Positions 6,998 to 49,295 of a stretch of DNA of 64,000 nt are shown here, piece by piece; the first letter of the stretch is position 1, and each line of letters opens with the position of its first letter. The notes below the pieces were generated by a model that saw nothing but the letters and a program-made list of their open reading frames with translations, was not told the origin of the DNA and did not search any database. A program made the translations under genes and the position numbers. Source of the stretch: a virus (Duplodnaviria > Caudoviricetes); the IMG/VR virus record IMGVR_UViG_3300031857_000014. One strand, written 5' to 3'.

Positions 6998-7189
6998 ATG
7001 ATTATTATTGATGTAACAAAAGAAAAAAATATTGAAACCGCGTTGAAAAACTATAAAAACAAGGTGAATAGAATTAAACAAATTCAAAAATTGAAAGAGA
7101 GAAAAGAATACGTGAAACCCTCTGTAGTTAAAAGAGAAATTATATTAAAAGCTAAATTTAAAAATAAAATGAAAAATGGTCTTAATTAA
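6998..7189 (+). CDS. rpsU: Ribosomal protein bS21 (phage-encoded)
   Basis: From ATG 6998: MIIIDVTKEKNIETALKNYKNKVNRIKQIQKLKERKEYVKPSVVKREIILKAK; matches the bS21 pattern (E.ALK.FK.K...ELR.R..YEKPS..RR). Confidence 0.88.
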   Translation: MIIIDVTKEKNIETALKNYKNKVNRIKQIQKLKERKEYVKPSVVKREIILKAKFKNKMKNGLN

Positions 7190-7929
7190 AGACCATTTTT
7201 TAATTCTTTAAGTTTGTAATAATTGTATTTTGAAATTTCCATAGAATCCACTTCTTTTTTAACAGATTCTAATTTTGATATAACATCTGATTGTATGTAT
7301 TTTGACTCAGATAAGATACCATTGATTTTTTGATTGATATCTTCTTTTAATTCTTTTGTTTTTTCTTTTAAATCTTCGTCATTAAATGATAAAATGTCCT
7401 TTAATTCTTTTCTCTGATTCTCATTTAATGAATCATTATATAAAACATTGAAATTATTGACAAGTACTGCATTTAATAAACCTAAATTTGGTATTAATGT
7501 TTCCGATTCCTCAAGTTTTACAGATTCTTTTTTAGTTGTTAAAAACTTAATTAAATTATCCTTCGCTAATACTTTTTTATCTATGTTTAACAAACTATCA
7601 TCCTCTGATAAAATATCTAAGTATTCATATACTTGATTGTTATCACAGTTATAATCTTGAATATGTTCGTAAAGTGTTTTGTTAAATTTATATAATTCTT
7701 TAGTCTTATCTTTTAATAGATTAATTATACTTTCAACGTATACTTTCGCAACATTTTTATCTTCAAAATATTTGTTTTCTATTTCTTCATAAAATAGATA
7801 TAATTCTTTGAAACTTTTATTCTCTTTTATGATTTCCATAATAGATTTTACATCTGTCATGTTTTTTTCAGAATACGATTCAGATATTCTTGTCAGTAAT
7901 TTTGATTTTAATTTACCAAAACTGTTCAT
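7186..7929 (-). CDS. Hypothetical head-module protein
   Basis: 247-aa helical ORF directly downstream of the portal gene. Confidence 0.6.
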   Translation of the reverse strand: MNSFGKLKSKLLTRISESYSEKNMTDVKSIMEIIKENKSFKELYLFYEEIENKYFEDKNVAKVYVESIINLLKDKTKELYKFNKTLYEHIQDYNCDNNQVYEYLDILSEDDSLLNIDKKVLAKDNLIKFLTTKKESVKLEESETLIPNLGLLNAVLVNNFNVLYNDSLNENQRKELKDILSFNDEDLKEKTKELKEDINQKINGILSESKYIQSDVISKLESVKKEVDSMEISKYNYYKLKELKNGL

Positions 7930-7931
7930 GT

Positions 7932-9728
7932 TTAATCGTTTAATATGTCTTTTAATTTATTTTCTATTTCATAAATATTCTCTTGCGCCTTATTAAAATC
8001 AAATTCTTCATTTTCATCTAACATTTCTGTTATTTTTAATTTTTTTGATTCACTTAAAGGAGCTTCACCACCACCTGTTGGAGGTGGTGGAGGAGGAGAA
8101 CCACCACCCAATTCACCACCCATACCACCGGGAGATTCACCTGGAGCACCCGCACTTGCTTCTCTTTCTTTTTCGGGTATACCGTACTTATTGTCTACAT
8201 TATCAAATACTCCTGAACGTTTAATAACATTTTGTGTGTTAGTTAACTCAAAACCAATAGCTCTTTCAAGTCTTTGTTGCTGTAAATCAAGAATAACTTC
8301 ATTATCACTCATACCAAGAATATTTTTCTTAGCCCATGTATGAGAAACAGGTAAAATACCTATTTGAGATTGGTCAGATGTTGCATCCTTATAAAGAGTT
8401 ATCTTTTCTTTCCATTGTTCAATCTTTAATAATTCTGATTGAGAAGATGGGTTAGTTAAAGATAATTGAAAATTATTTAATTCATCTTCTAAACCTAATA
8501 AGTATAAATGAATTAACGCAATTTTATTTAATTCCTGAATTAATGATTTTTGAATTCTATTAATTGTTCTCGCAAAACGTATATCCATTAGTGCAAGATT
8601 CTTACCGTCACCCACAGCATCTTCAAACCCTAAAAAAGCTTTAGGTATTCTCAATGCAGCTAATAATTTCTTTTGAATATATTCTATATCGGCGATTTCA
8701 CCTAAGTTTTGAGCACCTGCTAATGTTTCAATAGGGTTAGTCGCAGCTGGATCACGAACAGGAATAAAATAATCTTGGTCTACCGCCATTTGATTATATC
8801 TCATATCAATTTGTCCATTCTTAGGGTCAGCAATAGGTTGTCTTTTAAATTTATTCGCAACCCTTTGTACGTAAGCTTCAATATCCTTATCATCCATATT
8901 ACCAACAAAGACTTTAAACACACGTCTCTCCGGTGCTCTTGATGTTCTATAAATTAACATAGCGTCTTCGGCTAAAAGTAGTTGTTTCCAAATTCTTCTA
9001 ACTTTATCTAACATTGATGTACCATAAGGTAATTTTCTATCATCACCTAATAATCTAAAATGTCCAATTTCCCATGATTGAAATTCCATGTCTTTATTTT
9101 TCCATTGAAATCTCAATTCTCTAGTTGGCATTTTCATTTCAGGATTTTGATTGGGTGTTTTTGATGAAACACCTTCCAATCTTTCTATTTCAATATTTGG
9201 TAACTGTTGACAACCAATAATTCCTTTTTCGGGATTTATTTTGAGATAGATAAAATTGTCACCATATTTACATAATCCTCTAGCCCACATTTGTAAATTT
9301 GTGTTTATGTCTAATCTGTTACTAAATAAATCTTCTAAAATATTTTTAACTCTGGTTGATTCTGAATATATCGTTAATATTTCACCTTTTTCTGACATTG
9401 TTGTTGATTCTTCAGCGTAAATGTCTAAAGCAGCAGATATCTCCGGAGTAAACTCCATAGATTCATAATCATAGTATGCTGCTAATCTATTTGGTTCATA
9501 ATATACTGATTGATTATATAGTGATTGATCTAATTTAGCCCATTTATCTGCGATATATGTACTTTGTTGTGCTTGAAGTAATGCGTTTTCGTATTCTTCT
9601 TTACTATCCGTTTTCAGTAACTCATCCTTACTAAATGTAAATGATTGTTTTTCTTCAGGTTTTGATTGACCCGGAAACCCAAACATCTTAGTGAGTTTCT
9701 GAAATACCGTTAAATTTTGATTATCCAT
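7932..9728 (-). CDS. Portal protein, T4 gp20-like
   Basis: YDYESMEFTPEISAALDIYAEE, LPYGTSMLDKVRRIWKQLLLAEDAMLIYRTSRAPERRVF, QDYFIPVR and IETLAGAQNLGEIADIEYIQKKLLAALRIPK. Confidence 0.95.
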   Translation of the reverse strand: MDNQNLTVFQKLTKMFGFPGQSKPEEKQSFTFSKDELLKTDSKEEYENALLQAQQSTYIADKWAKLDQSLYNQSVYYEPNRLAAYYDYESMEFTPEISAALDIYAEESTTMSEKGEILTIYSESTRVKNILEDLFSNRLDINTNLQMWARGLCKYGDNFIYLKINPEKGIIGCQQLPNIEIERLEGVSSKTPNQNPEMKMPTRELRFQWKNKDMEFQSWEIGHFRLLGDDRKLPYGTSMLDKVRRIWKQLLLAEDAMLIYRTSRAPERRVFKVFVGNMDDKDIEAYVQRVANKFKRQPIADPKNGQIDMRYNQMAVDQDYFIPVRDPAATNPIETLAGAQNLGEIADIEYIQKKLLAALRIPKAFLGFEDAVGDGKNLALMDIRFARTINRIQKSLIQELNKIALIHLYLLGLEDELNNFQLSLTNPSSQSELLKIEQWKEKITLYKDATSDQSQIGILPVSHTWAKKNILGMSDNEVILDLQQQRLERAIGFELTNTQNVIKRSGVFDNVDNKYGIPEKEREASAGAPGESPGGMGGELGGGSPPPPPPTGGGEAPLSESKKLKITEMLDENEEFDFNKAQENIYEIENKLKDILND

Positions 9729-9779
9729 ATAAGTAAATACTTTTGTTTAAAATAAACTAAAATATCAATAGTTTAAAGG

Positions 9780-11558
9780 TTATTTCTTAGTACCAAATAA
9801 CCACGAATATTCTTGATATGCGTCTTTATTTGATGATATATTATTCATATTAGAATTTAATCCTGGATTATCCATTTGAGTTAAACCAACCGGATCAAAA
9901 GACGTTCCGTATGAATAAAATGATTTATTAGGTTCATATGTTCTTTCACTTACTGTCCAAGACTCTAACATGGCTTTATTTGCCGATTCATTTCTTTGAA
10001 GTTGGTTAAAACATATATCACCAGCATATAACGCCATAGATATACTCATAATTGCATCGTCATGAGCACCTTTCATGTGGTCAGGTCTACCATTAATATA
10101 AACAAACGTGTTTAATTCATTTAATAATCTATTCGATCTAATTAAGAATCCTTTTCTAACTTGTTCTTCAAATGCAGCAACAATTTGAGTTCTTTTGTTA
10201 TTAAAATTTATACCGGGAATTTTATCCATTACTTTTCTATTATATTCCCAAATATTTTGTGTATTAATACCTTCAATATATAAATTTTTATAATTCATTT
10301 CTTGAAGTTTTCTTGATGTAGCAATTCCCATACCACCAGTTATATCTGTAACAATAAATGAATTACCATAAAGAATACCCCATTTATATGCGATTGACGC
10401 CAAATCATCTGGAGGAATTTTTCCTATATATTCTAAAACTTGTTCTCTATCATCAAAATCAATTATATTGATTGCTGAAAAATCTTCACTATCACCTCTA
10501 CTCACATCAACACCCATAATATATCGGTGACCAACAATAGGTTCTTTCCATTGCCAAAGAGTACCTTGCATATACTTTTCAATCGGTTGTCTAACCATAT
10601 TCTTTGCAATATTCTCTTGTATTTCACCTGGAATAACACCATCACCTGAACCTAAAAAGTCACATTCCAATTCCTGAGCAATCTTACGTCTATCATATTT
10701 GAATTTTTTAGACATAGATTCAAACCAAGAAGAAAAAGGTTTGTATCCTTGTTCTTCATACTCACGATATTTTTCAATATCAAAATCGTACATAACAACT
10801 TCATCATCATTATATTGTTCTCTATTCAACATGTAATGACATATGTCAGCACATTTAATCCACCTTAAATCCTTAGTATATCTTGGGTCTTTAAACCATC
10901 TTAAATCAGTAATATGAAAATCATTTATACCACGTAGAGCCTGATCATAAACACCATAATAAATTGGGTCATATCCATTTGGTGTTGAAATAAGAATAAT
11001 CTTACCACCGGTAGACAATGACGCCATAGACGCCGCCCAAAAATCTTCTCCTGCTTCAATATAAGCAGCCTCATCAAATACAAGTATTGTTGGAGTATAA
11101 CCACGTAACGCATCCGCAGATGTTGCTACCGCTTTTACTTCACAACCATTGTTTAATCTAAATCTACTTTCTGAATTTTTATCCGGGTGAAAACCAACAT
11201 TAATCCATTCAGGCCATTGGTCTAAGAAATGTCTAACCTTATTGGCCATTTCAATTGCGGTATCTCTCTTGTTTGCAATAATCAAAACCCTTTCAGGATT
11301 TTCGGGTTTTGCTGTCTGAAGTTTCTTTGATATCCATGCAGCGGTAACTGTTGACACACCCGCCTGTCTATATTTCCTTGTTATATTCTCATTATAAGTT
11401 TCGTAATCTTTAATTAACTGAACTTGGTCAGGGAATAATTCTAAAGGAACAAATTTCTTTTGTGTATTATCATAAGTTGTTAGATATGTTTTGAGAGCAT
11501 ATGGAGCATCTTTGATAATACGAGCATATTCTTTTAACTGCTCAATTTTACTATTCAT
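9780..11558 (-). CDS. Terminase large subunit, T4 gp17-like
   Basis: KYRQAGVST (Walker A-like), ILVFDEAAYIE (Walker B), ISTPNG, GVDVSRGDSEDFS and HDDAIMS nuclease motifs; start moved to MNSKIEQ (11558) because a terminator and the late motif lie immediately upstream. Confidence 0.93.
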   Translation of the reverse strand: MNSKIEQLKEYARIIKDAPYALKTYLTTYDNTQKKFVPLELFPDQVQLIKDYETYNENITRKYRQAGVSTVTAAWISKKLQTAKPENPERVLIIANKRDTAIEMANKVRHFLDQWPEWINVGFHPDKNSESRFRLNNGCEVKAVATSADALRGYTPTILVFDEAAYIEAGEDFWAASMASLSTGGKIILISTPNGYDPIYYGVYDQALRGINDFHITDLRWFKDPRYTKDLRWIKCADICHYMLNREQYNDDEVVMYDFDIEKYREYEEQGYKPFSSWFESMSKKFKYDRRKIAQELECDFLGSGDGVIPGEIQENIAKNMVRQPIEKYMQGTLWQWKEPIVGHRYIMGVDVSRGDSEDFSAINIIDFDDREQVLEYIGKIPPDDLASIAYKWGILYGNSFIVTDITGGMGIATSRKLQEMNYKNLYIEGINTQNIWEYNRKVMDKIPGINFNNKRTQIVAAFEEQVRKGFLIRSNRLLNELNTFVYINGRPDHMKGAHDDAIMSISMALYAGDICFNQLQRNESANKAMLESWTVSERTYEPNKSFYSYGTSFDPVGLTQMDNPGLNSNMNNISSNKDAYQEYSWLFGTKK

Positions 11559-11571
11559 ACATATAAATACA

Positions 11572-11596
11572 AAAAAAGGTGGTAAAACCACCTTTT
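11572..11596 (-). terminator. Intrinsic terminator between the 439-aa gene and terminase
   Basis: AAAAGGTGG-tttta-CCACCTTTTTTT on the minus strand. Confidence 0.65.
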
Positions 11597-15581: not shown

Positions 15582-16661
15582 TTATTGTGGTAGAGATAAT
15601 TTTTTATCGATTGCGGTACTTTTTAAATTAAGTAACTTCTCGATATATCCATTTCTTCTCAAAAGTTTGAATGTTAAATTTTCGTATGAATATTCACCAC
15701 CATCCTCTAAACCACTCTGTCTGAATTTTTTTATTTTATTTTTTAGGTCGTCTATTTTTTTAACTATGTCTTTATCATCACTATTTGAAACCAAATCATC
15801 TATCTGTTTAGCATATTCTTCACCTTTCTCTAGAATTTTCCTATCATCAATTTTAGTATTAACTTTTTGAGGTTCTACTAACCATTTATTGTGTAATATA
15901 GAATAAACTCCGGAGGAAATATGTTCTTCATCAATGTCTTGAACGTATAATTCAACATCAAATCCTTTTATTTTAATATTATGGTCTTTATTCCATACGT
16001 TCTTTTTACTATTAAAAAATTCTTTTACGATATTATGAAGTATTTTTGAATCCGTTTTTTTACTATTATCAAATTCATCCATATCAAGAAGTATATGTAA
16101 GTCAACATCCGAGAATTCCGACCAATTAAAATTTGCTAATGAACCTGTTAAGATTATATCGTGTATAAAAAAATCAACATCTATAGATTCAATAAAATTA
16201 TTAGCAATTTCTAATAATCTTTTTCTAATGTTTTCTTTCATTTCATAACCACTATCAACTCTACGGAATATATCATAACAAAGATGGTCTTTACTTTCAA
16301 ATGAAGAAATAATTTTTTTATCTAATTCTTTATCCTCTTCTAACTCACTTTCCTTACTTAAAATATGATTAATTAATTTAGTCATGTTTTCAGCGGTAAA
16401 TCCTTGAGTTCCGATACTACCATTAGGTCTTCTTAAGATTTCTGTAGGTATTAATTTAAAATCACCATTTACAATTGAGGGGATTTTTTTAACATTTAAC
16501 AGATTTAATAAATTCGCTCGATGATTACCATCATTTATCACATATGTATCATCTGGCATTTTAGAAATTTCAACAGGATTAGATATCACAAATTTTAATA
16601 TTTTTTGGATATCCTGTTTATTATCTCTTAATTGATATATTAAATCTTTAAACTCACTCAT
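15582..16661 (-). CDS. ParB/Srx-like fragment fused to a Pol-beta-family nucleotidyltransferase
   Basis: N-terminal PVEI..YVINDGNHR; central ILTGSLANFNWSEFSDVDLHILLD and DVELYVQ (GS..DxD plus third acidic residue). Confidence 0.7.
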   Translation of the reverse strand: MSEFKDLIYQLRDNKQDIQKILKFVISNPVEISKMPDDTYVINDGNHRANLLNLLNVKKIPSIVNGDFKLIPTEILRRPNGSIGTQGFTAENMTKLINHILSKESELEEDKELDKKIISSFESKDHLCYDIFRRVDSGYEMKENIRKRLLEIANNFIESIDVDFFIHDIILTGSLANFNWSEFSDVDLHILLDMDEFDNSKKTDSKILHNIVKEFFNSKKNVWNKDHNIKIKGFDVELYVQDIDEEHISSGVYSILHNKWLVEPQKVNTKIDDRKILEKGEEYAKQIDDLVSNSDDKDIVKKIDDLKNKIKKFRQSGLEDGGEYSYENLTFKLLRRNGYIEKLLNLKSTAIDKKLSLPQ

Positions 16662-16903
16662 TTTACTTTAGTGTATTTATAATTTTTTGATATATTCTGA
16701 TTAAAAAACTTTCCCTGAGATTCCGCTAACCTTAATTTCGCAAACACTTCCCATGGAACTTTATTATACTCATAAATAGAGCCATTATTAAAAGTGATAG
16801 TTAAATCTTCTGATTCGGTATTAAATGATGCTGATTTAAGATTACTTGAATTGATTTCAACCATAATCATTTTACCTTCAATTTTTTCTGATGTAATTGC
16901 CAT
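16658..16903 (-). CDS. KTSC domain protein
   Basis: SSNLKSASFN..LTITFNNGSIYEYNKVPWEVFAKLRLAESQGKFFNQNI. Confidence 0.85.
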   Translation of the reverse strand: MAITSEKIEGKMIMVEINSSNLKSASFNTESEDLTITFNNGSIYEYNKVPWEVFAKLRLAESQGKFFNQNISKNYKYTKVK

Positions 16904-16975: not shown

Positions 16976-17353
16976 TTAATTCAGAGAAATGAGTCGTTCA
17001 ATTGACTTTCTCCTACTTCTTGGTAGAGTAATCTCTACTACCCCGTTTTCTACTTTACCCTTAATGTTTTTTTCATCAACATCTTCAGGTAAACGATAGG
17101 ACTTTTTAAAAGAGTTCACAAAAGAATATGTTTTATCATCTGTTTCTTGTTTTTCATAAGACACAGTTAAAACATCATCTTTCAAAATAATCTTTATGTC
17201 CTCTTTTGACAATCCGGGTACCGCTAAATTTATACGGTACTCGTTTTCGGTTGTTATTACATCTGATGACTTTTTGTTTTTTGATTGATAATTTCTGTCA
17301 TCAAAGAAAGAATCAATCATCTCTTTGAATGGATCTCTGTAAGTTGTTAACAT
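16976..17353 (-). CDS. Small heat shock protein Hsp20
   Basis: YRINLAVPGLSKEDIKI, FKKSYRLPEDVDEKNIKGKVENGVVEITLP alpha-crystallin motifs. Confidence 0.92.
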   Translation of the reverse strand: MLTTYRDPFKEMIDSFFDDRNYQSKNKKSSDVITTENEYRINLAVPGLSKEDIKIILKDDVLTVSYEKQETDDKTYSFVNSFKKSYRLPEDVDEKNIKGKVENGVVEITLPRSRRKSIERLISLN

Positions 17354-19986: not shown

Positions 19987-20409
19987 ATGACTAACACTAA
20001 CTACGTGGGGGACTTAATCCTACTAAGAGGACTACCAGGTTCCGGTAAATCAACACTTGGTGAAATCATACTAACAAATTTTATAGATAAACCTGATGTT
20101 TTATCTGCTGACGATTATTTTATAAATTCTGAAGGTAACTATGAATTTGATGGGTCGAAATTAAAAGAAGCTCACAATGATTGTCAACAAAGGTGCGCAA
20201 ACAAAATGAGAAATGAGATTTTAAAGATAGTTGTTGCAAATACTTTTACTGAAGAATGGGAAATGGAAACATATTTTGAAATGGCTGAAAGATACAGATA
20301 TAGGGTACATACCGTAATTGTGGAAAATAGACATGGTAATAAAAACATACATGATTGTCCCGAGGAAAAAGTATCACAAATGAAAAATCGATTTAACATA
20401 AAACTGTGA
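19987..20409 (+). CDS. P-loop kinase (AAA_33 / polynucleotide-kinase-like)
   Basis: LILLRGLPGSGKST, LSADDYF, IVVANTF..WE, HGNKNIHDCP. Confidence 0.82.
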   Translation: MTNTNYVGDLILLRGLPGSGKSTLGEIILTNFIDKPDVLSADDYFINSEGNYEFDGSKLKEAHNDCQQRCANKMRNEILKIVVANTFTEEWEMETYFEMAERYRYRVHTVIVENRHGNKNIHDCPEEKVSQMKNRFNIKL

Positions 20410-24709: not shown

Positions 24710-24730
24710 TTAAATTGTTTTTAATAAATA

Positions 24731-39317: not shown

Positions 39318-40230
39318 AAAAATATTATCCATTTAGGATTCACAGTTTTAATCTTCGGATTATTTCTGAAGTTCTAATAAAAGATAATTGGGCGGTCTAT
39401 AGTCCATTCACCTTCGGGTGACAGATACCTTCGGGTATTTGAAAATAAACTATGAAAGTAGTATAAAGTGACTTACTTTGGTTGAAGTAGGTTGCGGTTC
39501 TCGAAAGAGAACTCGAGTAGACAAGCGAGATATCATTTAATCTTGAGTACTGAGGGTGACACTGTAGGGAAAGTGGTTGAATGACTTGGCGATGTGGGTC
39601 GTCAGGTTGAGGTGGGAACACCAATAAGAATAACTCGTAGAATACATGCAAGAAATAAGGTCATCCTACTTTATAATTGCGTTGTTCAATATTAGAGTTG
39701 ATTTAAAACCGAAAGGTATGATGATGTACAGATGGTGCTGTTATTATCCTTAATCTTTGTCCTACCAAGGACTTGATTATGAAGTTGACTTGAAATATGG
39801 AGACAGGGATGTTTCAGAGGGTAGTTCAGTATTTTCTCGTTCAAAAGATGGGAGAACTGGTGACGGACCACTACCTTCAAAATCCACAAACCAAAACTTT
39901 TTGATTGTATTCAAAAATATTAAATCAATAAAGAAAAAGTGTCCGTCAGTTGTCAGAAACAGGTGACTACACAGTCGTGAGGGGTTCACGGCCACAAAGG
40001 GTCTCAAGCCCGATGTGATTTTTAAGAAAGTTCTCTAATCCCGCAAGGATGAGTTGGGGTGGCAACCTCGAAGAGCAGCAAGTATTAAGAGAGTATTTGA
40101 CAACTTTAGGATTGGTTAATCTAATTGACCGTCACTGATTGGTACTACTCAAAAGGTAGTGGATAAGGGAAGAACAAATAATGTCCCCAAGTCAATCAAT
40201 AGAACTTGTAATCTCAGAGTTTCTTTTAAA
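39318..40230 (+). ncRNA. Large (about 0.9 kb) highly structured ncRNA, GOLLD/ROOL-class candidate; boundaries approximate
   Basis: No credible ORF; higher GC than flanks; several cUUCGg and GNRA hairpins; long-range 8-9 bp helices; own promoters, boxA-like leader and terminator. Confidence 0.8.
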
Positions 40231-40305
40231 AAATTTGTTTCCTAGTTTAGTAAAACTATGGTGGTGGAGATAATGACTTCTTTATGCGGTCAGCCTCAAA
40301 ATATG

Positions 40306-40333
40306 AAAGGACTAGTAAACTAGTCCTTTTTTT
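40306..40333 (+). terminator. Intrinsic terminator of the large-RNA transcript
   Basis: AAAGGACTAGT-aa-ACTAGTCCTTTTTTT. Confidence 0.8.
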
Positions 40334-40421
40334 ATTATACCACTTTTTTTTACCGGAAATTTTACTTATATTTATATTCAGTTAACGATTTTGTTAACTA
40401 TAAACTAAATAAAAATAAAAT

Positions 40422-40946
40422 ATGAAAAAAACAGTTTTCTTATTAGTTGCAACAATGTTAGCATTTACAACATTGTACGCACAAAAACAATCTGACATGT
40501 TTGTTAGTGGAACAGTATCGTTCACTAAAACTACAGATGTAGACGCATCTTATCAATTAAAACCAACTATCGGTTATTTTGTTACAAACAAACTTGCTGT
40601 TGGTGTACTTGGTGAAGTATCAAAATCAAGCACAGAAGAAGTATTGAATATCGGTGCTTTCGGAAGGTATCACTTTTTAACTGTTGGTAAAAATTGTCAA
40701 GTATTCTCACAATTGAGTTTGGCTAACAATTCTACAACAGTTGCTGGTGTAAAAACATCCGGATTTGGTGCTAATTTAGGTCTTGGTTCAAACTATTTTG
40801 TTACCAAAAGACTCGGTCTTACTATGGATTTAACCAATCTAATTACCTATTCAAATGTTGATTCTAAATCAACAATTAATATTGGTTTTGATGGTGTGGT
40901 AAACCCATTTGCAATTCCAAAATTTGGTGTTATTTATAATTTCTAA
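40422..40946 (+). CDS. Outer-membrane beta-barrel protein (small, Bacteroidota type)
   Basis: Signal peptide, alternating amphipathic strands (IGYFVTNKLAVG, FGRYHF, LGSNYFVTKRLGL), C-terminal GVIYNF. Confidence 0.85.
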   Translation: MKKTVFLLVATMLAFTTLYAQKQSDMFVSGTVSFTKTTDVDASYQLKPTIGYFVTNKLAVGVLGEVSKSSTEEVLNIGAFGRYHFLTVGKNCQVFSQLSLANNSTTVAGVKTSGFGANLGLGSNYFVTKRLGLTMDLTNLITYSNVDSKSTINIGFDGVVNPFAIPKFGVIYNF

Positions 40947-40968
40947 AAAAAATAACAAATATTATTTA

Positions 40969-40996
40969 ATCCCCACAATAGTGGGGATTTTTTTTT
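40969..40996 (+). terminator. Terminator after the OMP gene
   Basis: AATCCCCAC-aata-GTGGGGATTTTTTT. Confidence 0.75.
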
Positions 40997-41100
40997 GTCT
41001 AAACTTTTTGAGATTATTTTGAATAAAATAAAAATTGGTTCAAAATTTGATATAATTAAAATATTTAATATCTTGTTAACCTATTTATAATAAAGAACAT

Positions 41101-41652
41101 ATGAAAAATATAACATTATTTTTATTTTTTTTAATAGGTTTTTTAAGTGTGAATGCACAAACCCCTGATACTGTTTGTTATCGTTCAAATAACTCAACAT
41201 ATCAAGTAACAAATACACCGGGAAACACATATACTTGGACAGTCGCGTCACCTGGTGTTATTACAGGAGGACAAGGTACAAATGTGATTACAGTTAACTG
41301 GGGTTCAGCAAATCCTGGTTTAATTACAAATGCGGTTACAGTATTTCCAACAAGTGCTGAAGGTTGCGTAGGACCAACAGTATTATTAGATGTTTTTGTT
41401 TTAAACATTATACCTACAGTAACACCGGTAGTGTTATGTGCAGATGCTGGTTGTGTTCCTTTAATTGGTTCACCATCGGGAGGAGTTTGGAGTGGATCCG
41501 GTGTTAGTGGTAATCAGTTCTGTCCTAATTTAGTTACTGCGGGTCAATACACCATAACATACACATATAGTTTGGCTGGATGTACGTTTACAGGTACGGG
41601 TACCGCAACTGTAAATCCATTACCAACAATAAGTCCTATACAACATGATTAA
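41101..41652 (+). CDS. Secreted Ig/PKD-like domain protein
   Basis: Signal peptide; NTYTWTV..GVITGGQGTNVITVNW and GGVWSGSGVSGNQFCP...GQYTITYTY repeats typical of Bacteroidota surface proteins. Confidence 0.75.
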   Translation: MKNITLFLFFLIGFLSVNAQTPDTVCYRSNNSTYQVTNTPGNTYTWTVASPGVITGGQGTNVITVNWGSANPGLITNAVTVFPTSAEGCVGPTVLLDVFVLNIIPTVTPVVLCADAGCVPLIGSPSGGVWSGSGVSGNQFCPNLVTAGQYTITYTYSLAGCTFTGTGTATVNPLPTISPIQHD

Positions 41653-42212
41653 TGAAATGGATATTTTGTTTAATATATGTTTTACTGGGTTATGTCACAT
41701 ACGGACAACAAGAAATTGAATTATGTCCAGGTAATAGAAATACATTTACCTATTGGAGTAATTCATCTACATCAAATGGGGGTTGGTTATGGTTATTAAA
41801 CCTTGACACAATCTCAATAAACAGTAGTGTTAAAATAACATATCGAGACACCGGATTTTTTTTAATTACTGTTCATTATAAAGATGAATGTGGAGAACCT
41901 ATTCGTTTTTACAGAGTAAAAGTTAAAAAATGTCCCGAATCTGCAATATTTTTTCCAAACGCCTTTACACCAAATGGGGATGGATTAAATGATGGTTGGT
42001 CACCAATACCATTTAAAATAATTGAAATGAAATGGAATGTGTGGAATCGTTATGGTCAAAAAGTATACGAAAGTAAATACATTGAAGACAAGTGGAATGG
42101 GTTATACAAAGAAACACCACAACCAATTGGTGGATATGTTTTTCAATGTTGGTGGAAAGGAATTGATGGTAAAACTGGATATAAAAAAGGAAATTTAATA
42201 TTAATAAGATGA
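41652..42212 (+). CDS. T9SS type B (gliding-motility-associated, CHU_C-like) C-terminal sorting domain protein
   Basis: Signal peptide; IFFPNAFTPNGDGLNDGW, VWNRYGQKVYES, KWNG, QPIGGYVF, KKGNLILIR. Confidence 0.88.
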   Translation: MKWIFCLIYVLLGYVTYGQQEIELCPGNRNTFTYWSNSSTSNGGWLWLLNLDTISINSSVKITYRDTGFFLITVHYKDECGEPIRFYRVKVKKCPESAIFFPNAFTPNGDGLNDGWSPIPFKIIEMKWNVWNRYGQKVYESKYIEDKWNGLYKETPQPIGGYVFQCWWKGIDGKTGYKKGNLILIR

Positions 42213-42355
42213 AAAAATATATAACACGAGCAATATTTTTAATTATTATTTTTTTCTTAGTGATGGTGTTTTCTGGATGTACAAAATATTATTCACCTGA
42301 AAAATATGCTAACCCAAAAAGAAAATATGAGGTAGAAAGGAGAAAAGTATATTAA
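42209..42355 (+). CDS. 48-aa lipoprotein (absent from the ORF track)
   Basis: MKKYITRAIFLIIIFFLVMVFSGCTKYY...; lipobox FSGC; abuts both neighbouring genes. Confidence 0.65.
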   Translation: MKKYITRAIFLIIIFFLVMVFSGCTKYYSPEKYANPKRKYEVERRKVY

Positions 42356-42356
42356 A

Positions 42357-43727
42357 ATGAGACAAATTATCACATTATTATTTACAATATTTTCAATTGC
42401 AGGTTATTCTCAATGTGGTAATACTGATTTTGAAACAGGGACATTTACTGGTTGGTCCGGTAAATTAGGAACTTGTTGTCCAATTAATCTTCCAAATAAT
42501 GGTATTGTAAATGGGAGACAAACAATAATGACACAAGGAATTGATCCTCACTCATGCGGTGGTTTAAGAACTGTTTATCAAGGTACATATTCCGCTAGAT
42601 TAGGTAATGATAGAATTGGTGCACAAGCTGAAGGGTTGTCATATACATTAACAATAACACCAGCATCAACAATAATAAGGTATGCGTATGCTGTTATATT
42701 TCAAGATCCGAACCACGCAACTGCAGACCAACCCCGGTTTCAATCGAGAGTTAGATTAGCAAATGGTTCGATAATACCTTGTACTGATTATACTGTTACC
42801 GCAGCATCAGATTTACCTGGATTTCAATATTGCTCACCAACACCACCTGATACGACATTTATCGCGTGGAGAGATTGGACTGAAGTTGCTGTTGATTTAA
42901 GTGCATATGTTGGACAAACAGTTACACTTGAATTTGAAACTGGTGATTGTAGATTAAGAGGTCATTATGGTTATGCGTATATCGACGCAGTACAATGTGG
43001 TCAATCAAATACACATGTGACTTATTGTGAAGGTGATGACTCATTAACTATAAATGCAATGGGTGGATTTGCAAATTATGAATGGGAAACAGGTGATACC
43101 ACACAACAAATAACAATAAATCCAAACTTATATGATACTATAACGTGTACTGTAACAACATTTTTAGGTTGTGAATTAACATTATATTATATATTAGACA
43201 TGGCACCAGGGTACCCTAATTTTATTTACAGTCCAAATTGTTCGGGATTAGTTCAATTCACAAATACAAGTACCGCATCATATACACCAATAAATTATTT
43301 GTGGACATTTCCTGATGGTACAACATCAACTTTAGAAAACCCAACACACATTTTTAGTCCAGGTATTCATAGTGTTAACTTACAAATTTCTTCTAATTTA
43401 GGTTGTGGTAGAGATACCACTATTTTGATAGAAATATATCCAACACCTGTACCTAATTTTTCCGCACCTAATGTTTGTTTAGGTGTTCCAACACCGTTTA
43501 CAAATTTATCAACTCAAACCCTTGGGTATCCGGTAAGTTATTTGTGGGGTTTTGGTGATAATTCCACATCAACAAATACAAATCCAATTCACCTTTATAA
43601 TAACTCTGGCACATATTTGGTTACATTATATGCTGCAACAACAGGAACAGGATGTATGGATAGTATAACAGGACAAATAACTGTTTATCAAAATCCAATC
43701 ATTATTGGTCCAATAATATCAAATTAA
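42357..43727 (+). CDS. Secreted PKD-domain protein
   Basis: Signal peptide; CGNTDFETGTFTGWSG N-domain; two PKD repeats (VQFTNTS..YLWTFPDGTTSTLENPTHIF; FTNLST..YLWGFGDNSTSTNTNPIHLYNNSGTYLVTL). Confidence 0.82.
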   Translation: MRQIITLLFTIFSIAGYSQCGNTDFETGTFTGWSGKLGTCCPINLPNNGIVNGRQTIMTQGIDPHSCGGLRTVYQGTYSARLGNDRIGAQAEGLSYTLTITPASTIIRYAYAVIFQDPNHATADQPRFQSRVRLANGSIIPCTDYTVTAASDLPGFQYCSPTPPDTTFIAWRDWTEVAVDLSAYVGQTVTLEFETGDCRLRGHYGYAYIDAVQCGQSNTHVTYCEGDDSLTINAMGGFANYEWETGDTTQQITINPNLYDTITCTVTTFLGCELTLYYILDMAPGYPNFIYSPNCSGLVQFTNTSTASYTPINYLWTFPDGTTSTLENPTHIFSPGIHSVNLQISSNLGCGRDTTILIEIYPTPVPNFSAPNVCLGVPTPFTNLSTQTLGYPVSYLWGFGDNSTSTNTNPIHLYNNSGTYLVTLYAATTGTGCMDSITGQITVYQNPIIIGPIISN

Positions 43728-44725
43728 TGAAACAATACTTAATAATTTTCTTTTTACTGTTTTCTAACTTTTTATATTCTCAATGTAAAGATGTGTATAG
43801 TGTTCAAATAGATTGTCCAACAGAACAGGATAGTTTAGTACTATACAATAACGCATTGAAAGTGTATGATTTTTATGATAATAATAAATCATATGAAAAA
43901 ACAAGAACAAGAGAATTAACATCAGATTTTGATAAAAGAAACATATTTGAAGATTTAACAACGGCTAGAAGATTATTTTTTGTTATAAGAAGAGAAGTCG
44001 CTAAAATAAAAGAAACAGAAAAAAAATTTATTGCGGGTAAAACAAGCCCAAAATATGTTGACATTAATTACAAAGAATATTATCAAGAAGTTGATGAATA
44101 TAGATTCTATCAAAGAGAAATAGAAAGTCAAATAGTGAATAAATCCGCACCAATTGCAATTTATGATAATAGAATTGCACCAATTATTGTAAATGAATAT
44201 CACTGTATTGACTCAACAAGCCCTTATTTTGGTGATTTAGTAAACATACCATTATATATTCCTGTGACTGTTAAACCTTTTATGTTATTAACAGAATCAG
44301 AGTTAATTATTCGTAATGATATTTTAAAAAAAATTGACCCTAACTACATACCAAAAAATATGAACAAACCACTAATAGATACAATGACTATTAGAGAAAC
44401 AATAACCAAAATAACAAATACTGAAGACAATAAAAAAAGAGTAATTATTAAAGATACAGTAATTAAAAAAGACAATATAAGAATAAAACAACCAGAAATA
44501 CAATTAAGTTGTACATTCCCTATTCCTGTTTATGCATTTAATCCTATGAGAGGGGGAACGTTGGTTGGATTTGTTTGCGATAAATATTTTATAAAAATAA
44601 AACCATCACAATACAACTATTATGCTGTACCTAAATGGGCTCAAGACATATTAGAAAATAAAAAAGATTTAAATAATCTCCTAAAAAACAAATTTGGTGA
44701 TTATTTATTAGGCGTGATAGAATAA
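43727..44725 (+). CDS. Secreted hypothetical protein
   Basis: Signal peptide MKQYLIIFFLLFSNFLYSQ. Confidence 0.6.
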   Translation: MKQYLIIFFLLFSNFLYSQCKDVYSVQIDCPTEQDSLVLYNNALKVYDFYDNNKSYEKTRTRELTSDFDKRNIFEDLTTARRLFFVIRREVAKIKETEKKFIAGKTSPKYVDINYKEYYQEVDEYRFYQREIESQIVNKSAPIAIYDNRIAPIIVNEYHCIDSTSPYFGDLVNIPLYIPVTVKPFMLLTESELIIRNDILKKIDPNYIPKNMNKPLIDTMTIRETITKITNTEDNKKRVIIKDTVIKKDNIRIKQPEIQLSCTFPIPVYAFNPMRGGTLVGFVCDKYFIKIKPSQYNYYAVPKWAQDILENKKDLNNLLKNKFGDYLLGVIE

Positions 44726-44735
44726 AATAAAAATT

Positions 44736-47015
44736 ATGAAAAAAATATCAATCATTTTAATTTTAACAATAATCTTTTCTTCAGCAAATGCAAGAAAATT
44801 TTACTTTAGTAGTTCTACAGGTAGTGATACCTACACTACAACTCAAGCACAAAATCAATCAACTCCATGGGCGAGTCTTAAAAAAATGGAACAAGTGTCA
44901 CGAACTGCGAATGTTTTTCAAGCGGGTGACACATTAGCATTTAAACGTGGTGATGTTTTTGCGAACGGGTACATCAATACTTTTGCAAGTATGCAATGGA
45001 GAAATGATGGTGGTACTTATTGGATTGCACCAAGTGGTACTCCAGATAGACCTATTGTAATCACAAATTACGGAGACCAAACTTTACCATTACCAAATTG
45101 GTTATGGCCAACAACCACATCTCCTGTTAACGCTTGGCCAAACACAAGGCCGGCAAGACATGTTGTTTGTTTTACAGGTGTTGCGAATATAGTGATTGAT
45201 GGTATTCAATCCAATGATTTCAGATTTCCCGAGAATGATAAAATTACACCCGCATATACAGGTGGATGGTTAATTGGAGAATGGACAAATTCTAGAACTG
45301 TCAATGGAGTTTATGTTCAAGGTGCGAATAACCCCAATAATAGAAAATATATGGTTACAAACTTCAAGGTTCGTAACTGTGTGTTTAATAACATTCAATA
45401 TGGTTTTGGTGGGATAGCTGCAATTAATAGCGAATTTAGTTATAATAGAATAACAAATTTAAAGGCTACGACAGATACTGCTGGTGTGAATGATGTGATG
45501 GCAGGTGCTTTCGAAGCTTTAAGTGGGTTTTATGTCAATATACATCACAACTATATAAAAGGGGCTTGGGCTAAAAGTGGACGAATAAGTTCAACAAATG
45601 GACTCGGCGGTGTTGGTTTTGATATTCTTAACTTAAAAAATAGTAAAATTGCATATAATACAGTGATTGATTGTTCGGGTATGTGGGAAATTGGTAATCT
45701 GGACAGATTAGACTCTACTTCAGGTGCACAATACGATACCTTCGCATTTAACAAAGTAATTAACTGTGGTAATTTCGGTTATTTACATGGTTCGACAGGA
45801 TCATTTATTGGTAATAATCATCATTTATCTTTTTGGAACAATGTAATAATATCTAATAACAAAGACAGACAAAATGGATTAGGTTTTGGAAAAGACGTTT
45901 ATGGGGATGGACAAGGATTTGCACCAGGGACACCTAATGCTTGGTGGATGTGTAGAAACCCTTTGAGTACATGGAATCAATCACCATATATCCCTTCAAC
46001 AACTACAACAGCTGGTTCAAACATAGTTACCGTGAGTAATGTAACAGGAATACGAATAGGTAGTGTAGCATTCGCAAACAATGATAGTCTTTTAGGTACA
46101 ACATATCAAACAGTTACTGTAACATCAATAAACGGAAATCAACTCACATTGAGTGTAAACTGTACTCGTTCTACTATCACTACGAATGTGGCTTATTACC
46201 TACCTGTATCTGATACCACATGGAGTACTCCACTCAATTCATCATTTGCTAATTACGGTGGTACAAGAGCTTTTATTCAGTATGCTTCTGACAATACCAC
46301 TTTTGGTTCATATATTGATACAATGATTGATAGTAGAAATAATATCATGTATTGGACCACAGGTATACAAGGAGTTTATGATAGAACAAGATTCAAAAGA
46401 AATAGTAATATATACACACCTATTGGTGGTGCTAGATTTACAACTTCGGTCGGTAGTCCATTAAGAACTTCTGAAAGAGTTATCACAACCAAACTATTCA
46501 GGGACACTACCGCCTTATATCCCGAGGATTGGGACTTACATCCTGTGGATACAAGTTACGCTTATGCGACAGGGTCACCAACACCAGGGTTTACCGTAGA
46601 CTTTGAAGGTAAACCAATAACGACACCTTTTATCGGATTATTTTCAAAGTTAAATGTCGTTACTATAGATACTTGTAGATTCACATATGGACAGTGGAGT
46701 TCTTGTAATGGAAGTTTTCAAACAAGACCATATACCTCATTTCCCTCGGGTTGTGTTGGCGTCCCACCACTTGATAGTATTCAAAGAAGTTGTGTCGTTG
46801 TTTCACCGGTTAGATATTTTTATTATAGTCCAAGTAGAGTTAGTATTAGAATTGAATCATCTACTTCAGGAGTAATTACAATTACAAATACTTTAGGTCA
46901 AGTAATTCGTAATATAAATTATTCTGCAGGAGGTTCTTGGAAAAGTGTTAATTTTTTACCTTCCGGAACATATACTGCAAGAACTTATGATAAATCATTT
47001 TTGTTTATAAGATGA
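44736..47015 (+). CDS. Right-handed beta-helix (pectin-lyase-like) protein with a T9SS type A-like C-terminal domain
   Basis: Signal peptide; FYFSSSTGSD..N..TPWASL..AGDTLAFKRGDVF start; Asn ladders; C-terminal ITITNTLGQVIR..LPSGTYTAR. Confidence 0.78.
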   Translation: MKKISIILILTIIFSSANARKFYFSSSTGSDTYTTTQAQNQSTPWASLKKMEQVSRTANVFQAGDTLAFKRGDVFANGYINTFASMQWRNDGGTYWIAPSGTPDRPIVITNYGDQTLPLPNWLWPTTTSPVNAWPNTRPARHVVCFTGVANIVIDGIQSNDFRFPENDKITPAYTGGWLIGEWTNSRTVNGVYVQGANNPNNRKYMVTNFKVRNCVFNNIQYGFGGIAAINSEFSYNRITNLKATTDTAGVNDVMAGAFEALSGFYVNIHHNYIKGAWAKSGRISSTNGLGGVGFDILNLKNSKIAYNTVIDCSGMWEIGNLDRLDSTSGAQYDTFAFNKVINCGNFGYLHGSTGSFIGNNHHLSFWNNVIISNNKDRQNGLGFGKDVYGDGQGFAPGTPNAWWMCRNPLSTWNQSPYIPSTTTTAGSNIVTVSNVTGIRIGSVAFANNDSLLGTTYQTVTVTSINGNQLTLSVNCTRSTITTNVAYYLPVSDTTWSTPLNSSFANYGGTRAFIQYASDNTTFGSYIDTMIDSRNNIMYWTTGIQGVYDRTRFKRNSNIYTPIGGARFTTSVGSPLRTSERVITTKLFRDTTALYPEDWDLHPVDTSYAYATGSPTPGFTVDFEGKPITTPFIGLFSKLNVVTIDTCRFTYGQWSSCNGSFQTRPYTSFPSGCVGVPPLDSIQRSCVVVSPVRYFYYSPSRVSIRIESSTSGVITITNTLGQVIRNINYSAGGSWKSVNFLPSGTYTARTYDKSFLFIR

Positions 47016-47656
47016 GAATAATTTTAATGTTATTAATTTTATTTAGTCCTAATTTACAGGTTTATCAAGAAAATCTTGTAACAGAAAATGAACATGTTTT
47101 AATACGAATTTTTAAATATGAACAAGAACTTGAAGTTTGGGTGAATAACTCAGAAAAAAAAGAATACTATTTGTATAAAAAGTATTCCATTTGTAAAATA
47201 AGTGGAACTCTCGGACCAAAAAGAAAAGAAGGTGATTATCAAGTTCCAGAAGGGTTTTATTACATAAACGATTTTAACCCTAAAAGTAAATATAAAAAAA
47301 GTTTAGGTATAAATTATCCAAATGAATCTGATAAAATACTAAGTACATATAAAAAATTAGGTGGAAACATATACATACATGGTGATTGTGTTTCAGTTGG
47401 GTGTATTGCTATTGGTAATAAATTTATTGAAGAGTTATTTTTAATTTGTATAAGAACAAAAAATCCGATTCCGGTTCACATTTTCCCAATTAACTTTAAC
47501 AATAATAAATCTAAAAATTCATTACTATATTACAATTATGTTTATGAAAACAAAAATTTTGAAACTAATTTAAAAAATGGTTTTAACTTTTTTGAAGAAA
47601 AAAAATATCCGCCAAAAATAAAAGTAGACAGTTTGGGATATTACCAATTTTTTTAG
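47012..47656 (+). CDS. L,D-transpeptidase family protein (YafK/DpaA-like)
   Basis: LEVWV, SGTLGPKRKEGDYQVPEGFYYI..FNPKSKYKKSLGINYPN, IYIHGDCVSVGCIAI. Confidence 0.87.
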   Translation: MRIILMLLILFSPNLQVYQENLVTENEHVLIRIFKYEQELEVWVNNSEKKEYYLYKKYSICKISGTLGPKRKEGDYQVPEGFYYINDFNPKSKYKKSLGINYPNESDKILSTYKKLGGNIYIHGDCVSVGCIAIGNKFIEELFLICIRTKNPIPVHIFPINFNNNKSKNSLLYYNYVYENKNFETNLKNGFNFFEEKKYPPKIKVDSLGYYQFF

Positions 47657-47670
47657 TTATATTTACAAAT

Positions 47671-48354
47671 ATGAAAATAGTATTAATTTCAGACACTCAC
47701 GGTTTACATGAAAAAATGTTGTATAACTTACCTGAAGGTGATATGATAATCTGTGCTGGAGATATAAGTAATGTCGGTAGTATATTTGAAATTAATCAAT
47801 TTACACAATGGTTTTCTAAATTGCAGTATAAATACAAAATTTTTATTGCGGGTAACCATGATTTTGGTTTTGAAAAAATTAGAAAATCTAATGAAATAGG
47901 TATTAGTATTCCACATGGTGTGATATATCTTGAAGATGAAATGGTTGAAATTGAAGGATTAAAAATATATGGTAGTCCTTGGCAACCCGAATTTCATAAT
48001 TGGGCATTTAATTTACCAAGAAACGGTGATCAAATAAAATTCAAATGGGATTCAATACCTGATGATACAGATATATTAATTACTCACGGACCACCTTTTG
48101 AATGTTTAGATATTACACCAACAAATCAAAGAGTTGGTTGTGAATTATTAAAAATTAGATTAGATGATTTGAAACCAAAACTTCATGTGTTTGGTCATAT
48201 ACATGACAGTTATGGAATAAAATATACAAGTGACACATTATCTGTAAATGCGTCTATTTGTAATGAAAGATATCAACCGATAAATAAACCAATTGTTGTT
48301 GAGGTGTCTGAAGTTTATGGTGAAAAAGTCATAACTTATGTTGATAATGGTTGA
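47671..48354 (+). CDS. Metallophosphoesterase (calcineurin-like)
   Basis: ISDTHG, ICAGDIS, IAGNHD, LITHGPP, HVFGHIH. Confidence 0.9.
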   Translation: MKIVLISDTHGLHEKMLYNLPEGDMIICAGDISNVGSIFEINQFTQWFSKLQYKYKIFIAGNHDFGFEKIRKSNEIGISIPHGVIYLEDEMVEIEGLKIYGSPWQPEFHNWAFNLPRNGDQIKFKWDSIPDDTDILITHGPPFECLDITPTNQRVGCELLKIRLDDLKPKLHVFGHIHDSYGIKYTSDTLSVNASICNERYQPINKPIVVEVSEVYGEKVITYVDNG

Positions 48355-48404
48355 TAAGATATTTAATATTTTTCATAGATATTTATATAGTACAACTAAA
48401 TAAC

Positions 48405-48632
48405 ATGAAAAAAATCGTAAACTTTTTTAAGTCTATTTTTACTACTCTTGGTTTAGACACTCAAATTGAAGAAATAAAAAAAGAGATAAAAGAAGAGGTT
48501 AAAGAAACCGTTGAAGAAGTAAAAACAAAGACTAGAAAACAAGTTAAAACCGCAAAAGAAAAAGTTTTAGGTAAGGAGGAAAAATCCACCAAAAAACAAC
48601 CAGTCAAAAAAACTTCAGCAAAAAAGAAATAA
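48405..48632 (+). CDS. Small Lys-rich protein
   Basis: TATTTATA at 48380-48387; amphipathic N-terminus and basic tail. Confidence 0.55.
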   Translation: MKKIVNFFKSIFTTLGLDTQIEEIKKEIKEEVKETVEEVKTKTRKQVKTAKEKVLGKEEKSTKKQPVKKTSAKKK

Positions 48633-48660
48633 TTTCAAATTATTTTATTATCTTTGTATT

Positions 48661-48672
48661 AGTTCTTTAAAA
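48661..48672 (+). promoter_or_regulatory. boxA-like element upstream of ssrA; other copies at 35790, 36594 and 39306
   Basis: (A/T)GTTCTTT(G/A)A(A/C)AT, resembling rrn boxA TGCTCTTTAACA. Confidence 0.6.
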
Positions 48673-48675
48673 TTA

Positions 48676-49094
48676 TGGGCCTGCCTTGGTTTTGACGGAC
48701 ATTTGTATGGTAAATGGGCATGTAGTCGGATGTCATCTACGACTTAAATCTACGGTGGTAAAATTCAAACGGCAACGTTTACAACAACATGGAAATTGCA
48801 GGTCTTCTTGCAACTTCTAAAGTAGCTGCTTAATTAAGTACCTACTCTCGGGTCGGTTAGGACATATAACCTAGGAACAGAAGTCCATGAGGTTTAACAC
48901 CTACCACGTGATTCAGTTCAGAAAAGTGTGTTGGAGCAAATCAGACGGCTCCTTAAATCCGGTTTGGGGATTGTTGGAAGTAGTTATCTAAATCTATAAC
49001 TTCCTATTTGTTGATTATGAATAATCAAATAAACATGTAGTCCATTTATTGTTCGGTGTTTCGGACAGCGGTTCGACTCCGCTCAGGTCCACCA
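48676..49094 (+). ncRNA. ssrA: tmRNA (phage-encoded), predicted tag (A)GNVYNNMEIAGLLATSKVAA at 48771-48833
   Basis: 5' GGGCCTG..GGTTTTGAC; 3' GCGG-TTCGACT-CCGCT-CAGGTCC-A-CCA; G3.U70 and A discriminator; TATCTTTG promoter at 48649-48656. Confidence 0.93.
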
Positions 49095-49103
49095 CAAATA
49101 AAA

Positions 49104-49127
49104 TTCCCCTCATTTGAGGGGTTTTTT
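49104..49127 (+). terminator. Terminator after ssrA
   Basis: CCCCTC-attt-GAGGGG followed by TTTTTT. Confidence 0.8.
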
Positions 49128-49295
49128 GTTTCAAGGACACATTGTCCTTGATAATGTCTTTGAGAGGTCTATAAACGAACAAGAGAGGTCTTTAGGACCC
49201 CTCTGTCGAGATTTTAGAATACCTCCTTTTCGTTTTTTAAAGGTTATCATCTAATGGCGACCAAACCGATTAGACTCTATTAATAAATATCTTAA

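Follow-up and report, generated by a model that had tools for sequence, protein, structure and literature searches.

A phage stable-RNA island with rrn-type boxA words: probably one of several translation-related modules rather than part of a single programme

Do the many translation-related genes of a large phage genome act together, or do they merely share a genome? The question is raised by a 64,000-nt stretch of DNA from the IMG/VR virus record IMGVR_UViG_3300031857_000014 (the window, here meaning the whole stretch analysed), which encodes ribosomal protein bS21, several tRNAs, a tRNA mimic, the large RNA GOLLD, a transfer-messenger RNA (tmRNA) and candidate RNA-processing enzymes. An earlier reading made from the letters alone (the sequence-only reading) had proposed that these elements form a single programme that reprogrammes host ribosomes and shields translation from tRNA-targeting defences. 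Our analysis points, with somewhat better than even confidence, to several translation-related modules rather than one programme, among them a real stable-RNA island wired with signals of the host ribosomal RNA (rrn) type. Judged by its sequence, this island is coherent and syntenic, and its units share an rrn-type boxA; it holds tRNAs, the tRNA mimic, small structured RNAs, an RNase H-like gene, GOLLD, an MPPED-like phosphodiesterase gene and tmRNA. The genes for bS21, a nucleotidyltransferase (NTase) and chaperones sit in other modules that lack boxA, and their membership of the same programme is not supported. The proposal thus survives in its coherent RNA island with an embedded nuclease and fails in the separate modules of bS21 and the NTase and in a fluid tRNA count, while the shielding of translation from tRNA-targeting defences is pure speculation.

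The exact word GTTCTTTGA occurs three times in the 64 kb, always on the + strand and always in the RNA island: 3 nt before tRNA-Leu (35791-35799), 10 nt after tRNA-Leu (36595-36603) and in the GOLLD leader (39307-39315). Words of this type were present in 14/16 rrn leaders and 19/21 16S-23S spacers of the Bacteroidota sampled; the rrn spacer form GTTCTTTGACATATTGG is also the phage form beside tRNA-Leu in a relative, and identity between phage and host rrn leader or spacer boxA extends to 17-18 nt. At the tmRNA, a boxA-like word with one mismatch (GTTCTTTAA, 48662-48670, + strand) lies 7 nt upstream of the RNA. The boxA-like leaders that had been suspected on the RNA units are therefore identical to the Bacteroidota rrn boxA at tRNA-Leu and GOLLD and near-identical at tmRNA. 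In the literature examined, we found no description of boxA on phage tRNA, GOLLD or tmRNA units.

The surroundings of the word are conserved as well. The GOLLD unit (39150-40330, + strand) consists of promoters, a 5′ domain, a 3′ domain and a terminator, with two host-type promoters whose -7 boxes are at 39176 and 39277; downstream of each promoter come a hairpin and then a boxA-type word. Across the nine GOLLD loci, a word of this type stands ahead of the 5′ domain in 9/9, a TAnnTTTG -7 box precedes that word in 8/9 and a short hairpin with compensatory arm changes precedes the boxA in 7/9; one of the nine GOLLD phages, with a TerL only ~31 % identical, keeps the boxA word, with promoter and hairpin not evident. 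The tmRNA unit (48649-49121, + strand) begins with a -7 box (TATCTTTG, at 48649) and continues through the boxA-like word and the tmRNA (48677-49094) to a terminator (49106-49121), and promoter plus boxA were found at 6/10 family tmRNAs. A near match to the host-type promoter lies before tRNA-Leu. Taken alone, TAnnTTTG is not enriched in the window (86 occurrences versus 93 expected), and a sigma-70 scan, uninformative for Bacteroidota, returned 92 sites versus 82 expected.

Where the word lies relative to its promoter bears on what it may do. At tmRNA and at some tRNA units it follows the -7 box by 4-7 nt, which places it at or near the predicted transcription start, and a stretch ahead of tRNA-Arg is complementary to, and pairs with, the copy that follows tRNA-Leu. 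Both features would suit a word that is no Nus site in the phage, serving rather as an element that acts close to the promoter or in processing (a signal in the initial transcribed region, a site for an RNase or the arm of a processing stem). Against this alternative stand the 17-18 nt of identity with host rrn leader and spacer boxA, the arrangement of the GOLLD leaders, in which, as in rrn leaders, ~20-25 nt separate the word from the -7 box upstream and a hairpin usually comes first, and the fact that spacer boxA elements of rrn operons also adjoin processing stems; we regard it as highly improbable.

The reading that we prefer, that the word is an rrn-type boxA, has observations to contend with. 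Its function is something that we infer from sequence identity and position, and the second boxA of the window lies inside a long-range stem. Genome-wide, GTTCTTTGA occurs 34 times in five records versus 11 times for a reversed control (~3-fold), with part of the extra copies in coding DNA; in the close relative G001, 4/9 copies are in coding DNA, and those outside the RNA island are mostly coding. The same genome has two exact boxA words 175 nt apart (positions 171543 and 171718; L550) in a gene-free gap of ~290 nt, and this pair may represent another small RNA unit.

Both large RNAs of the island were recovered by covariance models. The GOLLD 3′ domain (39817-40220, + strand; Rfam RF02032) scores 326.2 bits against a gathering score of 150 and covers model positions 1-416 of 416, which gives a name to the giant RNA noticed earlier; its terminator is at 40305-40330 on the + strand. 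The tmRNA (RF00023) scores 102.5 bits against a gathering score of 47; ARAGORN did not call it. Its tRNA-like domain ends in CCA (3′ end ...GGTCCACCA), and its internal frame encodes the 20-aa tag GNVYNNMEIAGLLATSKVAA, ending in VAA before a stop and showing conservative changes in relatives, in agreement with the earlier assignment. Phage tmRNA tags are long (20-21 aa), and in tier B (relatives with a TerL 61-63 % identical) they end in VSVA, VVVA, VTVA or VVTA instead of the usual AA; the phage with long tmRNA tags also encodes its own ClpC-like unfoldase.

GOLLD is accompanied by tmRNA in 9/9 records, at <3 kb in 7 of them and even where tmRNA is inverted (tier B); the uncorrected Fisher p value of ~2e-4 represents effectively only two independent lineages. 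We did not find this pairing reported in the literature examined. A gene for an MPPED2-like metallophosphodiesterase (47671-48354, + strand; MPPED2 match E value 2.6e-50) lies directly between the two RNAs in relatives. According to a thesis cited in 10.1101/2024.12.08.627333, GOLLD binds ribosomes in pull-downs. The repeated pairing with tmRNA points towards a ribosome-linked function. Contigs from freshwater RNA libraries (4 libraries from 4 studies) match GOLLD at 39341-40137 and tmRNA at 48716-49052 with 0-3 mismatches per piece, which shows only that GOLLD and tmRNA, or near-identical RNAs, exist as RNA in lakes. The protein genes of 33800-49400 have mostly little or no RNA-library contig cover, and such contigs cannot rank expression.

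Embedded among the RNAs, 35 nt after tRNA-Met, starts the gene for the RNase H-like protein (38660-39121, + strand; PF04308/YkuK family). The protein matches PF04308 (YkuK/DUF458) with 59.2 bits against a cut-off of 25; its structural model, with a predicted local distance difference test (pLDDT) score of 89, has an RNase H fold matching RNase H1, RNase H2 and EndoV, and the acidic residues D36, E82, E88, D105, D107 and D111 are invariant. On this model, the protein belongs to the RNase H-like superfamily and is a putative nuclease. A tRNA lies within 1 kb in 75/80 and within 3 kb in 79/80 loci encoding homologues (55-78 % identical), in many of them only 20-60 nt upstream, and in distant phages the gene is inside or at the edge of a tRNA array. 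An RNase H-like protein inside the RNA island, as noted in the sequence-only reading, is thus what profile, fold and neighbourhood all indicate.

The tRNA part of the island, encoded throughout on the + strand, opens with tRNA-Leu(UAA), whose two exons (35803-35837 and 36533-36584) flank a 695-nt group I-like intron (35838-36532) containing an HNH open reading frame (ORF; 35873-36343). The gene is split after U34 in the anticodon loop, and in-silico splicing and the intron mode of ARAGORN both return tRNA-Leu; against Intron_gpI, the insert scores 44.3 bits over the full model, below the gathering score of 50 (E value 6.7e-10, narrow search). In the distant phage G027 (27356-27980; L287), a boxA word and then an HNH ORF come after an apparent tRNA-Leu(UAA) 5′ exon, which suggests that the two phages have the putative intron-plus-HNH arrangement in common. 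Downstream of the second boxA is a small ORF (36624-36932), also kept in G001, whose leader is a strong AAGGAG, a type rare in this phage. Within 36583-36963, the ~20 nt after tRNA-Leu, second boxA included, are complementary to a stretch just before tRNA-Arg, so that this ORF is enclosed in an arrangement resembling a processing stem.

ARAGORN and Rfam agree on tRNA-Arg(UCU) (36966-37038), tRNA-Asp (GTC) (37928-38000), tRNA-Glu(UUC) (38368-38440) and tRNA-Met(CAU) (38550-38624). In the genes of the window, UUA makes up 65 % of Leu codons, AGA 77 % of Arg codons and GAA 87 % of Glu codons, and the match between tRNAs and AT-rich codons remarked on earlier is borne out. The tRNA count is fluid, with 5 here versus 23 and 25 in the two large close relatives (G001 and G002), and the tRNAs retained in reduced arrays (Arg(UCU), Leu(UAA), Met and Glu) serve the most biased codons, which fits codon supply better than defence evasion.

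Between the tRNAs lie further conserved RNAs. The small structured RNA s1 (37786-37927, + strand), directly upstream of a tRNA, has BLAST matches in G001 and other contigs; it is ~130 nt long and conserved in at least six other viral contigs, and its alignment (A1) contains covarying pairs, one of them with four pair types. No Rfam match was found for s1. A second segment, s2 (38001-38130, + strand), also has BLAST matches in G001 and other contigs, and no relatives of s3 (38253-38367) or s4 (38441-38549) were detected among the loci compared. We rejected a view of the inter-tRNA segments as decayed tRNAs, as they show only T-arm-sized matches to the tRNAs of relatives. The proposed Shine-Dalgarno (SD)/anti-SD-like small RNAs did not hold up either: the pyrimidine tract of s1 pairs in cis within a conserved hairpin, and an SD-like leader precedes 3/64 genes against a background of 6 %, so that the phage would use the SD-independent initiation typical of its hosts.

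The tRNA mimic (38132-38250, + strand) has a 7-bp acceptor stem, a Leu-type D stem and a T arm, with the anticodon arm replaced by a 4-bp stem carrying a GTAA tetraloop (GNRA-capped). Its 24-nt 3′ part recurs in 103 viral contigs, and most copies are not callable as tRNAs; the earlier suspicion of a tRNA mimic stands. These mimics form a widespread phage family (loci L184-L286) with a common AGTCAGG/CCTGACT acceptor stem, a Leu-type D arm, a T arm and, in place of the anticodon arm, a very variable middle domain that is often 40-70 nt long. Relative to a 73-nt form found in L191, L207, L233 and L247, the mimic of the window carries a 47-nt D-loop insertion.

Whether the island and the remaining elements belong together was assessed by scoring six markers in 29 viral records: 5 close relatives (tier A), the tier B relatives and 19 records outside the family. 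All elements recur in the window's order in G001 and G002 (TerL 86-89 % identical), namely bS21, NTase, HSP20, Clp, kinase, cREC, tRNA island, RNase H-like gene, GOLLD, phosphodiesterase and tmRNA, and every marker is present throughout tier A save in one contig, which stops short of the island. In tier B, the RNase H-like gene is absent, and single records lack GOLLD (G011), bS21 (G021) or cREC (G026 and G029). Outside the family, the elements mix and match: bS21 is present in 4 records and tmRNA in 5, with an overlap of 0/9. Some near-complete genomes there have only the RNase H-like gene (G012), only bS21 and NTase (G016), only cREC (G025) or tmRNA, cREC and NTase (G019), and G027 (TerL ~31 % identical), which lacks bS21, has tmRNA, a 25-tRNA array, cREC, GOLLD and the RNase H-like gene clustered in 12 kb.

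These data divide the claim of co-occurrence. The order of elements is kept in tier A, and bS21 and tmRNA never meet outside the family. Independent gain and loss, named beforehand as the pattern that would contradict joint action, is therefore what we observe at least for bS21 relative to the RNAs. Two considerations weigh on the other side: the absences are soft because many records are fragments, and almost the full set of elements is found together in the close family (TerL at least 61 % identical), which is compatible with a lineage-specific joint function.

The bS21 gene itself (6998-7189, + strand) matches Pfam PF01165 (Ribosomal_S21) with 34.4 bits against a cut-off of 27, as the sequence-only reading had anticipated; setting its start at 6998 gives a product of 63 aa that matches relatives, and orthologues were found in 13/29 viral records. 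The flanking prohead protease, portal and TerL genes are on the other strand, and the bS21 gene has neither a boxA nor an exact TAnnTTTG promoter. Chen et al. 2022 (PMC9723584) report that bS21 is transcribed together with structural genes, and on the strength of that report and of the mix-and-match presence matrix we treat bS21 as a module of the late structural block, apart from the stable-RNA island, in an arrangement that is already published.

One co-selected programme of all elements, reprogramming host ribosomes and protecting translation from tRNA-targeting defences, could still be argued from the order kept in tier A and mostly kept in tier B, from the ribosome pull-down reported for GOLLD (a thesis cited in 10.1101/2024.12.08.627333) and from the recurrence of healing-type genes near RNA genes. 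We consider it rather improbable: outside the family, no record holds both bS21 and tmRNA, and G012, G016 and G025 have mostly single items; the tRNA sets of close relatives fall from ~25 to ~5, with GOLLD and tmRNA retained; bS21 lacks the promoter and boxA; the tRNAs kept in reduced arrays speak for codon supply and not defence; and no RNA ligase was found in the window.

The last point concerns the candidate RNA-repair enzymes, two of which lie upstream of the island. A P-loop kinase of the AAA_33 family (19987-20409, + strand; profile match), polynucleotide-kinase-like, is followed by a cREC_REC protein (20575-21006, + strand; profile match), and the pair is kept in G001 and G002. cREC is predicted to open 2′,3′-cyclic phosphates (PMC7824862). 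Together with the MPPED-like phosphodiesterase, they account for part of the repair set that had been claimed; the Pnkp/ligase-type set is incomplete because no ligase family matched in any scanned ORF of the window. The cREC gene is near tRNAs in 31 % of loci and the MPPED-like gene in 21 %, against a rough base rate of 5-8 %; these are minorities, which counts against a firm tie to the island. These two genes also tend to be neighbours of each other and of the kinase gene. Genes of end-healing type (cREC, kinase and MPPED-like) thus lie near these RNAs in several lineages, and the link is looser.

The kinase and cREC genes adjoin a proteostasis-type cluster of NTase, KTSC, HSP20 and ClpC-like genes. 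The Pol-beta-type NTase (15582-16661, - strand) matches phrog_36119 at 1.4e-43 and, by its sequence neighbours, belongs to a phage-only Pol-beta NTP_transf_2-like family, so that the NTase picked out earlier is confirmed as such. We rejected membership of the family of CCA-adding enzymes and poly(A) polymerases, which calls for a PolyA_pol head domain with a tRNA-binding body: the only pointer was a sub-threshold match to an MTPAP-like palm (25.2 bits against 27), and its neighbours in the atlas are phage-only NTP_transf_2 clusters. The KTSC-domain gene (16658-16903) overlaps the NTase start by 4 nt, and the two genes are neighbours in tier B (G029) as well. The KTSC domain is named after the lysyl-tRNA synthetase C-terminal domain and may bind RNA. 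HSP20 (16976-17353, - strand) and a ClpB/ClpC-type double-AAA ATPase (17509-19521, + strand), whose best cellular relatives are from Bacteroidota (52-59 % identical), form a proteostasis pair. PDB sequence searches gave nothing useful for the RNase H-like, cREC and kinase proteins and no match for the NTase, and an NCBIfam search added nothing.

A different view of the island is that it is mainly a tolerated insertion hot spot, in which tRNAs, introns, HNH genes, morons and various RNAs collect and where co-location records where insertions are allowed and not a shared function. A 7.2-kb block of envelope and type IX secretion system (T9SS)-cargo genes (outer-membrane protein (OMP), PKD, CHU_C and YkuD; 40422-47656) separates GOLLD from the phosphodiesterase gene in this phage only, the three elements GOLLD, phosphodiesterase and tmRNA being contiguous in G001 and G002. 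The HNH-bearing intron, the very variable tRNA content and the sporadic mimic (3/80 RNase H-like loci) would be expected of such a site too. The promoter-plus-boxA architecture common to units and lineages would not be, nor would an RNase H-like gene that starts 20-60 nt after a tRNA in many loci or a GOLLD-tmRNA adjacency that outlives the inversion of tmRNA in tier B, and we think it unlikely, and clearly so, that the hot-spot view explains the island. The preferred reading, a coherent stable-RNA island beside separate modules, accommodates these constant features.

Which phage carries the island? By sequence, it is a ~300-kb freshwater Bacteroidota jumbo phage of the published bS21-encoding group. 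The Bacteroidota-specific export domains CHU_C and PKD are encoded in the window. No close cultured relative was found, the best GenBank phage TerL being at most 29 % identical, and relatives number in the hundreds in IMG/VR, including some with contigs of 234-334 kb. The T4-type structural block, all on the - strand, includes the Gp23 capsid protein (2666-4414; profile match), prohead protease (5749-6435), portal (7932-9728) and TerL (9780-11591) genes. Between the cREC gene and the island are a GT4 glycosyltransferase gene (22770-23873) and a block at 24095-34701 that encodes a 2031-aa protein, three glycine-rich paralogues and neighbouring small ORFs and has no counterpart in the corresponding regions of G001 and G002; the block is hypervariable and possibly concerns tail fibres or host range. 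The motif TATTTAT(A) shows ~11-fold enrichment in the 60 nt that precede gene starts, for example, at 5693(-), 6459(-), 15553(-), 38636(+), 40369(+) and 41082(+). It precedes structural genes, the RNase H-like gene and envelope genes, was not seen before bS21 and may be a phage-specific promoter.

The phages of Chen et al. 2022 (PMC9723584) resemble the window in the placement of bS21 (opposite strand to a conserved block with capsid, prohead protease, portal and TerL), in ~31-33 % GC, 5-25 tRNAs, chaperone/Clp-type genes and signals of Bacteroidota hosts. That paper differs in that tmRNA and GOLLD have 0 occurrences each, and we saw neither boxA leaders nor a tRNA mimic nor the RNase H-like gene discussed in it. 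The takeover idea, that phages use S21, tRNAs, tmRNA and enzymes of RNA repair to intercept translation and to withstand attacks on tRNAs, is likewise in print (PMC7162821, PMC7824862 and PMC9723584). Al-Shayeb et al. 2020 (PMC7162821) and Iyer et al. 2021 (PMC7824862) give inventories across many phages with no co-regulation shown, whereas here the RNA genes have a common rrn-type leader, and the window has no RNA ligase with its cREC and kinase. GOLLD as described (RF02032; Weinberg 2009, as cited in 10.1101/2024.12.08.627333) shares with ours a full 3′ domain, a variable 5′ domain, a phage setting and proximity to a tRNA island; as a difference, GOLLD is in this phage family regularly paired with tmRNA and, in tier A, separated from it by the MPPED-like phosphodiesterase gene.

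How might the island be expressed? Host RNA polymerase would start at the host-type promoters (TAnnTTTG at GOLLD and tmRNA; the near match before tRNA-Leu), and the nascent boxA, after a hairpin at GOLLD, would recruit NusB/NusE and other rrn antitermination factors. The long untranslated transcripts could then escape Rho and be produced at a high rate; the products would be cut out by RNase P and RNase Z, perhaps together with the embedded RNase H-like nuclease, and the kinase, cREC and phosphodiesterase might plausibly heal broken RNA ends. The bacterial rrn antiterminator (boxB-boxA-boxC; NusA/B/E/G, SuhB and S4) is similar in its promoter(s), hairpin and identical Bacteroidota boxA, in a second boxA downstream of a tRNA, as in the 16S-23S spacer, and in its untranslated stable RNA products. 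It is unlike the phage units in that the phage products are tRNAs, GOLLD and tmRNA, that factor binding to the phage leaders is a prediction and that the phage tmRNA word lies almost at the transcript start, a few nt before the mature 5′ end.

Phage T4 offers a second comparison, in which a tRNA cluster is accompanied by Pnkp and Rnl1 against the anticodon nuclease PrrC. The two phages share a tRNA array together with 5′-kinase and 3′-phosphoesterase-type healing activities; unlike in T4, the proteins here would be separate and of other families (an AAA_33 kinase, cREC and a calcineurin-type MPPED-like enzyme), and no ligase was found in the window. Carried to its limit, the argument would make the units pseudo-rRNA operons that divert host Nus-modified polymerase to tRNA arrays, GOLLD and tmRNA as one regulon, with GOLLD and tmRNA acting on ribosomes (a cage plus rescue with a phage-specific long tag) and with the RNase H-like protein, kinase, cREC and phosphodiesterase as dedicated processing and healing enzymes. 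We put this forward as a tentative model that is, as a whole, unlikely to hold.

As bS21 is a separate and already published module, the takeover story should not be over-read, and its broad form is replaced by testable pieces. The uncharacterised YkuK/DUF458 family of RNase H-like proteins gains a strong tRNA context, and the stable RNAs of these phages, including the functionally unexplained GOLLD, appear to borrow the antitermination signal of host rRNA, which would provide a handle for the expression and study of GOLLD.

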